Positions 17,852 through 50,952 of a stretch of 62,264 bases of DNA are shown here, one piece after another. Numbering within the stretch: the stretch's first letter is position 1; every line of letters starts with the position of its first letter. The position numbers and the translations under genes are program-made. The notes under the pieces were generated by a model. The model saw only the letters and a program-made list of their open reading frames with translations, ran no database searches and had not been told where the DNA came from. Location: the NCBI RefSeq assembly GCF_003334305.1, contig NZ_QOWS01000027.1; one strand, written 5' to 3'. This DNA comes from Escherichia coli (lineage in GTDB: Bacteria > Pseudomonadota > Gammaproteobacteria > Enterobacterales > Enterobacteriaceae).

Positions 17852-17984
17852 AGCGACAATAACGAGTTCGTCAGGCGTGGTATCCGGGCGGTAATGGTAA
17901 ACCGTTCTGCTCAGGTTCAGACTCCGGCAGGCCTGACGGATACTGAGTCCGAACGTCGTTATCAGATGAGTAACCAGCTCACGC

Positions 17985-18263
17985 TTAAAGGCTAGTTTTA
18001 AAGCTTTTTTCGATAACGTCTTTCAGCGCCCTGTTCTCAAGACTCAGGTCGGCAAACATCTGTTTGAGACGTGGGTTCTCGTCCTCAAGATCCTTGATCT
18101 TTTTAATATCAGAAGCCTCCATGCCACCGTATCTGGACTTCCAGTTGTAGTAGGTGGCTTCAGAAATACCGGCCTCCCGGCAGACATCTTTAACGGTTCG
18201 TCCGGCTTCAACTGACTTAATCACAGCGATGATCTGATGCTCAGTAAAACGGGCTTTACGCAT
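17985..18263 (-). CDS. IS3-family transposase OrfA (HTH)
   Basis: 92 aa, MRKARFTEHQIIAVIKSVEAGRTVKDVCREAGISEATYYNWKSRYGG; strong SD GAAGGAG upstream. Confidence 0.85.
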   Translation of the reverse strand: MRKARFTEHQIIAVIKSVEAGRTVKDVCREAGISEATYYNWKSRYGGMEASDIKKIKDLEDENPRLKQMFADLSLENRALKDVIEKSFKTSL

Positions 18264-43102: not shown

Positions 43103-43185
<83 letters not shown>

Positions 43186-45195: not shown

Positions 45196-45202
45196 TCACC
45201 TC

Positions 45203-45228
45203 GCCCCGGTATCGTGCCGGGGCTTTTT
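45203..45228 (+). terminator. Rho-independent terminator of ansB
   Basis: Hairpin gccccggtatcgtgccggggc followed by TTTTT. Confidence 0.7.
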
Positions 45229-45311
45229 CACTTCAGACTTACGTCCATTGCCAATTTTCATTACCCTAATGATAATCACCGGAATAAATTATTCCGCGTG
45301 AGGTTTTTCGG

Positions 45312-46319
45312 GTGAAAAAGCAATGGATTGTTGGCACGGCACTGCTTATGTTGATGACTGGTAATGCCTGGGCAGATGGCGAACCGCCAACTGAAAATAT
45401 CTTAAAAGATCAATTCAAAAAGCAGTATCACGGCATTCTCAAGCTTGATGCTATCACCTTAAAAAATCTTGATGCTAAGGGTAATCAGGCCACCTGGTCA
45501 GCGGAAGGCGATGTCTCTTCCAGTGACGATCTCTATACCTGGGTCGGTCAGTTGGCAGATTACGAACTGCTCGAACAGACCTGGACGAAAGATAAACCGG
45601 TAAAATTCTCGGCGATGTTAACCAGTAAAGGAACGCCCGCGTCTGGCTGGTCGGTGAACTTTTACTCTTTTCAGGCGGCAGCCAGCGATCGTGGGCGGGT
45701 GGTCGACGATATCAAAACGAATAATAAATATCTGATCGTGAATAGCGAAGATTTCAATTATCGCTTTAGTCAGCTTGAATCTGCGTTGAATACCCAGAAG
45801 AACTCGATTCCTGCGCTGGAAAAGGAAGTGAAAGCGCTTGATAAGCAAATGGTGGCGGCGCAGAAAGCAGCGGATGCATATTGGGGAAAAGATGCAAACG
45901 GTAAGCAAATGACCCGCGAAGAAGCCTTTAAAAAAATTCACCAACAGCGTGATGAGTTTAATAAACAGAACGATAGCGAGGCGTTCGCGGTTAAATATGA
46001 CAAAGAGGTTTATCAACCGGCGATTGCGGCATGTCATAAACAGAGTGAAGAGTGTTATGAAGTGCCGATTCAGCAGAAACGAGATTTCGATATCAACGAA
46101 CAACGGCGACAGACTTTTCTGCAATCACAAAAACTCAGCCGTAAATTGCAGGATGACTGGGTAACGCTCGAAAAAGGGCAATATCCGTTAACGATGAAAG
46201 TTTCAGAAATAAACAGTAAAAAAGTCGCGATTTTGATGAAAATTGACGATATCAACCAAGCTAATGAACGCTGGAAAAAAGATACCGAACAACTGCGGCG
46301 CAATGGGGTGATTAAGTAA
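45312..46319 (+). CDS. yggM: DUF1202 protein YggM
   Basis: 335 aa with signal peptide; synteny. Confidence 0.9.
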   Translation: MKKQWIVGTALLMLMTGNAWADGEPPTENILKDQFKKQYHGILKLDAITLKNLDAKGNQATWSAEGDVSSSDDLYTWVGQLADYELLEQTWTKDKPVKFSAMLTSKGTPASGWSVNFYSFQAAASDRGRVVDDIKTNNKYLIVNSEDFNYRFSQLESALNTQKNSIPALEKEVKALDKQMVAAQKAADAYWGKDANGKQMTREEAFKKIHQQRDEFNKQNDSEAFAVKYDKEVYQPAIAACHKQSEECYEVPIQQKRDFDINEQRRQTFLQSQKLSRKLQDDWVTLEKGQYPLTMKVSEINSKKVAILMKIDDINQANERWKKDTEQLRRNGVIK

Positions 46320-46329
46320 GTTTGATATA

Positions 46330-46470
46330 GTGCACGATTTGTAGCAGGATGCGGCGTTGACCCCGCATCCGGCAATCAACGTCTGATGCGACGCTTGCGC
46401 GTCTTATCAGACCTACAACCGCTGCCACATGTCGGCTGGATAAGGCGTTCACGCCGCATCCGGCAATACA
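46330..46470. repeat. BIME/REP cluster
   Basis: Multiple palindromic REP units (gcggcgttgaccccgcatccggca, gataaggcgttcacgccgcatccggca). Confidence 0.65.
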
Positions 46471-46473
46471 AGT

Positions 46474-47610
46474 TTACTCAGCCAGAAAAAGCTCCAGCAG
46501 CGAATTTAAAAACAGCTTCCCATGTTCCGTTATCTGCCAGTAATCCGCACATTCGGTGAGATAACCCTGGGCAATCGCCTCGTCTAACTGTGGGCGAATC
46601 ACATCTTCGCAAAGCCCGGTATACGCAATAAACTCCACGCGCGGCGCGGCCTCCAGCAGACGGAAGCGATTCATAAAGAACTCAAACGGCTTATCTGCGG
46701 CTTCGACATCACGCTGGCTTTCCAGATACCTTCCTTGCATAAAACCACGCGGATGACGCGTTTTAGTGGTACGCAGAATGCGCCCATCCGGGAAGGTCAC
46801 TTTGCCGTGCGCGCCGCAGCCAATACCGATGTAGTCGCCAAAGCGCCAGTAGTTGAGATTGTGCTGGCACTGATAACTGGGTTTGGCGTAAGCGGAAGTT
46901 TCATATTGCTGATAACCCGCTGCGGTTAATAACTGATGCCCCTGTTCGAATATATCCCACAGCGCGTCGTCGTCCGGCAGTACCGGCGGGCGTGAACCAA
47001 ACAGCGTATTAGGTTCGATGGTCAGTTGATACCAGGAAAGATGCGGCGGATTCAGTTCAATGGCCTGGCGTAGATCGCCAAGCGCCTCTTCCAGTGATTG
47101 ATCCGGTAGTCCATGCATCAAATCGAGGTTAAAGCTACGCAGCCCCAGCCCGCTCGCCAGCTTTGCCGCGCGTTTCGCTTCTTGCGGGCCATGAATACGC
47201 CCAAGTCGTTTCAGCTTGTCTTCGCTAAAACTCTGCACACCAATAGAGATGCGGTTCACACCAGCACGCTGATAATCGACAAAGCGATCGGCTTCTACCG
47301 TACCAGGGTTCGCTTCCATAGTAATTTCTGCATCCGCTGCCAGCGGCAAACGCGCACGCACGCCGTCCAGCAGCGTTTGCATCGCCGGGCCGGAAAGCAG
47401 GCTCGGCGTACCACCGCCAATAAAGATTGTCTTTACTTCACGGCCCTGAGCGTAAGCCACATCGTTGTCCAGATCGCAAAGCAGATGCTGAACGTAATCG
47501 TCGTGCGGCACTTCTCCTTTCAACGCGTGAGAGTTGAAATCGCAGTACGGGCATTTCTGCACGCACCACGGGATGTGAATGTAGAGACTCAGCGGCGGTA
47601 ATTTAACCAT
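46474..47610 (-). CDS. hemW: Radical-SAM heme chaperone HemW (YggW)
   Basis: 378 aa; radical SAM CxxxCxxC ([10 protein letters not shown]); synteny. Confidence 0.95.
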
Positions 47611-48196
47611 TACGTAAAGCGTCCAGCAGCAGTTTCAATGCCTGACCACGGTGGGAAATGGCGCTCTTTTCTTCGCGGGTCAGTTCGGCGGCGGTTTTCC
47701 CTTCGGAAGGTACGAAGAAGATTGGATCATAACCAAAGCCACCAGTGCCCGCTGGTTCACGAGTAATCACGCCCGGCCAGCTACCGTGGCATACCAGCGG
47801 AGTCGGATCTTCCGCGTGACGCAGATATACCAGCACGCAGTGGAAACGCGCCTGACGTTGGTCATCCTGTACGTCTTTCAGTGTTTCCAGCAGTTTTTGC
47901 AGATTCTTTAGATCGGTCGCGTCTTCACCGGAATAACGCGCGGAGTAAATGCCCGGCGCGCCGCCAAGCACATCTACCGCCAGACCAGAGTCGTCGGCAA
48001 TTGCCGGTAAACCGGTCACTTTTGCCGCATGGCGCGCTTTCAGAATCGCGTTTTCGATAAAGGTCAGGCCGGTTTCTTCAGCGGAATCTACGCCGAGGTC
48101 TGTTTGGGCCACGATATCAAGACCGAAGTCGCTAAGCAGCGACGCCAGCTCACGCACTTTACCGGCATTGCCGGTTGCGAGGACAACTTTTTGCAT
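47603..48196 (-). CDS. rdgB: dITP/XTP pyrophosphatase RdgB
   Basis: 197 aa, [17 protein letters not shown]; Ham1 family. Confidence 0.95.
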
Positions 48197-50777: not shown

Positions 50778-50809
50778 CGTTGCCATGCCCGATGCGCAAG
50801 TTTATAGGG

Positions 50810-50925
50810 CCTATAAAGGCAATAAATGTCTGATGCGACGCTAACGCGTCTTATCAGACCTACAGCCGCTGCCAGATGTGTGCTGGATAAGGCGTTCACG
50901 CCGCATCCGGCAAGATGGCGGTAAC
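50810..50925. repeat. BIME/REP cluster
   Basis: REP palindromes (tgatgcgacgctaacgcgtcttatcagacctaca; ggataaggcgttcacgccgcatccggca). Confidence 0.65.
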
Positions 50926-50952
50926 GACTATCCGCCAGGCTTTTAGATCGCC

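Follow-up and report, generated by a model that had tools for sequence, protein, structure and literature searches.

What is the palindromic DNA between the convergent genes yggM and hemW, and what may it do at the 3' ends of their transcripts? In the window, i.e., the whole 62,264-nucleotide stretch of Escherichia coli DNA analyzed here, yggM (45312-46319, + strand), which encodes a DUF1202 protein, and hemW (46474-47610, - strand), which encodes a radical SAM heme chaperone and stands last in the yggS-yggT-yggU-rdgB-hemW run, converge on a 154-bp spacer (46320-46473) that is occupied by three REPs. The original prediction had put REP palindromes at 46.3-46.5 kb, and the three units are indeed located there. 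By its sequence, its palindromes and its extragenic position, the cluster is a member of the REP family. REP elements and BIMEs have been known since the 1980s. Our joint reading, to which we give a probability of about 0.9, identifies 46341-46464 as E. coli REP217, in which three REPs form a cluster of the BIME-2 type; this cluster would act as a two-way array of 3'-end hairpins and was presumably spread by a RAYT/TnpA-REP enzyme.

The first unit, REP1 (46341-46373), is a degenerate Y unit that is listed on the + strand and has a head-to-tail orientation of -. Its GTAG foot is found at 46341-46344 of the + strand, 21 nt after the stop codon of yggM (46317-46319). It is picked up by the covariance model (40.2 bits, E 1.6e-9) and not by the consensus scan, and its bulge, usually AA opposite GC, is now paired as GC/GC, as seen in the sequence and in the alignment to the Rfam naRNA4 family. 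REP2 (46381-46416, + strand, 44 bits) is a Z2 unit with the sequence GTCTGATGCGACGCTTGCGCGTCTTATCAGACCTAC, which has 1+1 mismatches to the Z2 consensus and is closed by CTAC at 46413-46416. Its outer stem carries a compensated C>T/G>A change and its bulge, GC opposite TT, is kept. REP3 (46431-46464, - strand, 53 bits, E 2.5e-13) is a Y unit that reads GCCGGATGCGGCGTGAACGCCTTATCCAGCCGAC on the - strand, with two mismatches to the Y consensus over head plus tail in the consensus scan. Its end is 9 nt away from the stop codon of hemW, and it has also kept its bulge (AA opposite GC), as two of the three units have. The foot of REP3 is GTCG (46431-46434), one change away from the GTAG that is found in O157-like strains and in strain 08-3914. 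The palindromes are imperfect inverted repeats, two of which, I2 (REP1) and I3, were found by the inverted-repeat search. With GCCGGATGCG taken as the head of a unit and CCTAC as its tail, the three units are oriented -, + and -, with a head-to-head linker of 7 nt between REP1 and REP2 and a tail-to-tail linker of 14 nt between REP2 and REP3. This alternating order, Y'-Z2-Y, is the BIME-2 pattern.

The spacer and its flanks are identical to positions 3098387-3098577 of K-12 MG1655 at 191 of 191 bases, and REP217, catalogued as 'Convergent, hemW/yggM' at MG1655 3098414-3098534 (supplement table, bioRxiv 10.64898/2026.03.23.713779), corresponds to 46343-46463 of the window. The name REP217 is taken from the supplement of this preprint and not from RefSeq annotation; in the stretch that matches the core of the window, the current RefSeq record of MG1655 contains no REP features. 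Sequence, flanking genes and orientations are all the same as in K-12 and nothing differs; the spacer carries the K-12 element itself, in a different strain. The surroundings are equally familiar: positions 34436-62189 are collinear, in reverse orientation, with MG1655 3110441-3082692 at 98.8% identity, and each of the 5,426 complete E. coli genomes contains a match to a 2.4-kb query around the site, where the flanking genes are annotated as yggM, hemW and rdgB. The original prediction had called this part K-12-like core DNA and its REPs not novel, and had named a comparison with K-12 as a check. That comparison bears out both statements, with orthologous copies present and the focal spacer 100% identical. 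The focal element is already known; it is real and ordinary, and it is not new. Given that REP217 had already been catalogued, the discovery value is small.

One alternative is a small-RNA gene in the spacer, of the nucleoid-associated naRNA4 type, whose Y+Z2 transcript would be processed and act with HU to condense the chromosome. The Rfam family RF02564 (naRNA4) matches 46343-46413 on the + strand along the entire model; the score, 60.9 bits, barely exceeds the gathering score of 59.5. The family model, however, derives from a single Y+Z2 unit of REP325, the yjdM-yjdN element, and at a relaxed threshold it also matches the other clusters of the window on both strands with 34-53 bits, below the gathering score. 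Because it models a single REP325 Y+Z2 unit, the match at the focal site shows a BIME-2 unit only, and to judge from these sequences RF02564 effectively detects any Y+Z2 unit. The linker at the match is 6 nt shorter than that of the model, REP1 contains non-standard pairs, and a scan of 45200-47700 gave no promoter-like site inside the spacer. Moreover, neither REP325 nor naRNA4 was found to compact the nucleoid, nor was a ternary complex of HU, cruciform DNA and naRNA4 found (bioRxiv 10.64898/2026.03.23.713779). We therefore reject naRNA4 identity as a family-wide resemblance and regard such a gene as very improbable here. The likeness to REP325, an array of 12 alternating Z2 and Y units and the source of 'naRNA4', is that of one BIME-2 array to another: both alternate Y and Z2, have short linkers, vary in tandem number and match the naRNA4 model. 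The focal element, in contrast, has three units only, a degenerate REP1 and a head-to-head linker of 7 nt versus about 13 nt in the model, and it lies between convergent genes rather than inside an operon.

A second alternative, that the spacer is a plain bidirectional intrinsic (Rho-independent) terminator which is palindromic by chance and stands outside any repeat family, would fit the location between convergent genes and the strong, GC-rich hairpins, and 78 REPs do lie within computationally defined bidirectional terminators (bioRxiv 10.64898/2026.03.23.713779). No T-run follows any of the hairpins, however, and a search for a hairpin plus T-run in 46320-46473 yielded none on either strand. 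The units also belong to a dispersed family, with 11-12 copies in the window and with matches to a 561-bp query at a median of 13 places in each E. coli genome, and their number changes from strain to strain, which is unexpected for a simple terminator. For want of a hairpin with a T-run the intrinsic terminator is rejected, and we consider it highly unlikely.

For REP217, we propose a role in two-way 3'-end formation that is borrowed, at the RNA level, from what other REPs do. RNA folding of the spacer gives -67.1 and -70.9 kcal/mol for the two strands, with z about -5.2, and none of 200 shuffles folds as well. In the published model, REPs act both as terminators and as stabilisers, blocking 3'-5' exonucleases and causing leaky, partly Rho-dependent termination. 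According to published work, about 30% of the E. coli convergent spacers contain a REP, and the convergent pairs that bear one are more highly expressed. A Rho-binding region determined in vitro (MG1655 3098511-3098610, +, the hemW sense strand) overlaps REP217, and the effects of REPs are described as having a large locus-to-locus variance, with no general effect on half-life (bioRxiv 10.64898/2026.03.23.713779). The strong folds, the lack of a T-run, the published behaviour of REPs and the overlap with the Rho-binding region lead us to infer that the cluster is a two-way 3'-end element for yggM and the hemW operon. Transcription of either gene into the spacer would produce RNA that folds as stable hairpins; these hairpins would stop 3'-5' exonucleases and so stabilise the upstream message, while leaky, partly Rho-dependent termination at the REPs would lessen the antisense transcription that reads through into the gene opposite. 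Liang, Rudd and Deutscher (2015) are also said to have found that REPs near a stop codon interfere with translation termination. Since REP3 starts only 9 nt after the hemW stop codon, its hairpin may also damp the termination of hemW translation.

Strains differ in how many REPs they carry in this spacer: 1, 3, 5 or 7 units are found, and each step adds about 88 bp. The spacer is 64 bp long with one REP in C43(DE3), 154 bp with three REPs in K-12 and the present window, 242 bp with five REPs in strain 08-3914 and 329 bp with seven REPs in strain 118. A BIME-type spacer is found in 3,911 genomes at a query coverage of at least 80%, and in 1494 of the 5426 genomes the spacer is a REP-free, 3.2-kb TRAP transporter operon. 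In this TRAP allele, yggM is followed by a canonical terminator, i.e., a hairpin with a T-run, which is consistent with the BIME taking a terminator's place. On the yggM side, the BIME and TRAP alleles are homologous up to about 5 nt short of REP1, and on the other side up to the stop codon of hemW; the last hemW codons differ synonymously between them. Strains with one REP or, in the TRAP allele, none are common, and the array is thus not essential. Such an allelic series illustrates REPs as variable 3'-end elements. A more speculative idea, which we think improbable, is that the number of Y-Z2 units works as a lineage-specific dial on the expression of hemW and yggM and on antisense read-through; if it were true, the yggM-hemW site would be a natural allelic series relating REP dosage to 3'-end formation.

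How the units came to be there can be considered from what is known of TnpA-REP. REP217 would be a non-autonomous repeat, presumably spread and amplified by a single RAYT/TnpA-REP enzyme that acts on REPs which are single-stranded, folded and carry GTAG at the foot; tandem units could also multiply by slippage or recombination among themselves. TnpA-REP requires both the bulge and GTAG in vitro (PMC8266576). By these rules REP1, whose bulge is lost, and REP3, whose foot is GTCG, are probably poor substrates today. Present-day mobility at the yggM-hemW site is doubtful for this reason, and the transposase may contribute less to changes in copy number than replication slippage or recombination does. 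In a similar way, the REPINs of Pseudomonas, which are RAYT-mobilised doublets, are inverted REP pairs with a spacer and are read, like the present units, as non-autonomous elements moved by a single-copy Y1 (HUH) transposase. They belong to another sequence family, whereas the E. coli units are group 2 REPs with a bulge.

The family extends across the window. A head-plus-tail Hamming search with the published Y, Z1 and Z2 consensus sequences (Methods of PMC11208160) gave 43 raw matches, versus a mean of 0.05 and a maximum of 1 in 100 shuffles; such a search with the REP consensus was the check named beforehand, and the units align to it. A covariance model was then built from nine of the window copies and run unfiltered over the whole window, where it recovers these nine at 40-57 bits (E 1e-9 to 1e-14). 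As it was built from the window's own copies, the model is circular for its nine members and is informative only for the extra copies and for absence from the island. The short Z1 unit at 43103 was left out of the model, because MAFFT misaligned it, yet the model detects it with 21.3 bits. In the nine copies, pairing holds for 92.9% of the stem cells, versus 20-41% with slid partners, and compensated changes occur at two positions of the stem (CG/UA and GC/UA/AU). That the palindromes arose by chance as unrelated, GC-rich inverted repeats, a reading with nothing in its favour except that short inverted repeats are common, is refuted by the shuffles (43 raw matches versus 0.05), by covariance-model E-values down to 1e-14 and by the orthologous copies in K-12, and it has next to no weight.

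In total, the window contains its 11-12 REPs at five sites, 43.1, 46.4, 50.8, 56.9 and 62.1 kb, all of them in the core (34436-62189) and all between annotated genes, on the 3' side of genes. The original prediction had listed REP palindromes at these five places between convergent or terminating genes. All five do hold REPs, as the scan and the covariance model together show, although the site at 56.9 kb is a single decayed REP and not a cluster; likewise, all lie 3' of genes, but only three sites are convergent and two, yggL>yggN and metK>galP, are tandem.

At 43.1 kb (43103-43181), between the tandem genes yggL (stop 43070) and yggN (start 43254), a Z1 unit (43103-43131, +, 21.3 bits) and a Y unit (43148-43181, -) stand tail to tail with a 16-nt linker. 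This cluster shares the family of palindromic units with BIME-1/RIP, in which Y and Z1 flank an L motif with an IHF site (Y-L-Z1), and it likewise pairs Z1 with Y, but its Z1-Y linker is only 16 nt long. The IHF consensus WATCAANNNNTTR has no match in the REP clusters of the window, and because it is absent from every one of them no window cluster is a BIME-1/RIP; a RIP with an L motif is thus rejected.

The cluster at 50.8 kb (50787-50911) lies between the convergent genes yggR (stop 50777) and yqgF, i.e., ruvX (stop 50953), and consists of a decayed Z1 (50787-50815), a Z2 (50828-50863, +) and a Y (50878-50911, -). The covariance model gives a borderline match at 50787-50814. The Z1 at 50787-50815 is intact in K-12 (…GCTTATCGGGCCTAC) and is decayed here by three substitutions, one of which changes CTAC to CTAT. 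Adjoining the cluster, positions 50914-50930 differ from K-12 by 8 bases of indels. The Z2-linker-Y segments at 46.4 and 50.8 kb are 91.7% identical over 96 bp. Their Z2 units (46381-46416 and 50828-50863) have in common a compensated change of the outer stem, GTCTGAT…ATCAGAC instead of GCCTGAT…ATCAGGC. The identity, the common outer-stem change and the same linker fit a spread of Z2-linker-Y as a block, and the comparison suggests that it was copied between the two sites.

The single unit at 56.9 kb (56931-56961, +) is a degenerate Y with 18.4 bits and an E of 0.005. It lies between the terminator hairpin of metK and the promoter region of galP, two genes in tandem on the - strand, and the metK-galP element is REP215 in the K-12 catalogue (supplement, bioRxiv 10.64898/2026.03.23.713779). 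In 56925-56970, a 13-nt insertion relative to K-12 directly follows the REP215 remnant. The cluster at 62.1 kb (62045-62189), between speB (stop 62004) and loiP, which are convergent in K-12, comprises a Y (62045-62078, +), a unit of Z2 length (62090-62125, -) and a further Y (62158-62189, +). The REPs that had been predicted here are present, but the last of them is interrupted by IS621.

Homology with K-12 stops at 62189, in the tail of the third speB-loiP REP, and the remaining bases, 62190-62264 (+ strand), are the first 75 nt only of IS621, a member of the IS110 family, from its left, non-coding and bridge-RNA-encoding end; the element itself stands outside the REP system and uses the REP as its target. 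These 75 nt are 100% identical to strain A7 (NZ_CP028767.1), which shows the whole element with an annotated IS621 family transposase, after which loiP resumes; in K-12 the site is empty. IS621 is inserted at the CT of the REP tail, in the target ATCTGAC-CT-AC (the ATCTGACCTAC target). The junctions read ...ATCTGACCT/TGTATTATCCC and, in strain A7, ...ACAGTATCT/ACGTTCG, with a CT core. The bridge RNA of IS621 directs its insertion into REPs (PMC11208160), and the target found here has two mismatches to the natural IS621 target ATCAGGCCTAC given in the same report. Among the best matches listed, only four genomes cover the junction query in full, one at 100% and three at 99.6% identity, and no Rfam family matches the non-coding ends of IS621. 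The insertion illustrates REPs as landing pads of an insertion sequence that a bridge RNA guides. In the focal cluster, the tail of REP2 (46406-46416, ATCAGACCTAC) is one mismatch away from the natural IS621 target.

The distribution of REPs also follows the composition of the window. GC content is about 0.34-0.49 over most of 1-34 kb and about 0.49-0.54 over 34-62 kb, and the covariance model has no match at E<3 in the low-GC segment (1-34435). The 34-kb low-GC island adjoins a tRNA-Phe gene (34439-34511) at the junction of island and core, which corresponds to pheV of K-12. pheV is a classical site of island integration. The original prediction had held that REPs mark the compositional contrast between core and island. 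The GC profiles do differ, and since all REPs lie in the K-12-like core and none in the island, that interpretation holds. As landmarks confined to the core (34.4-62.2 kb) and absent from the pheV-adjacent island, REPs support the line drawn between the ancestral backbone and the DNA gained by horizontal transfer. The island itself carries a full-length match to Rfam isrN, an Hfq-binding sRNA, at 17857-17999 with 149 bits.
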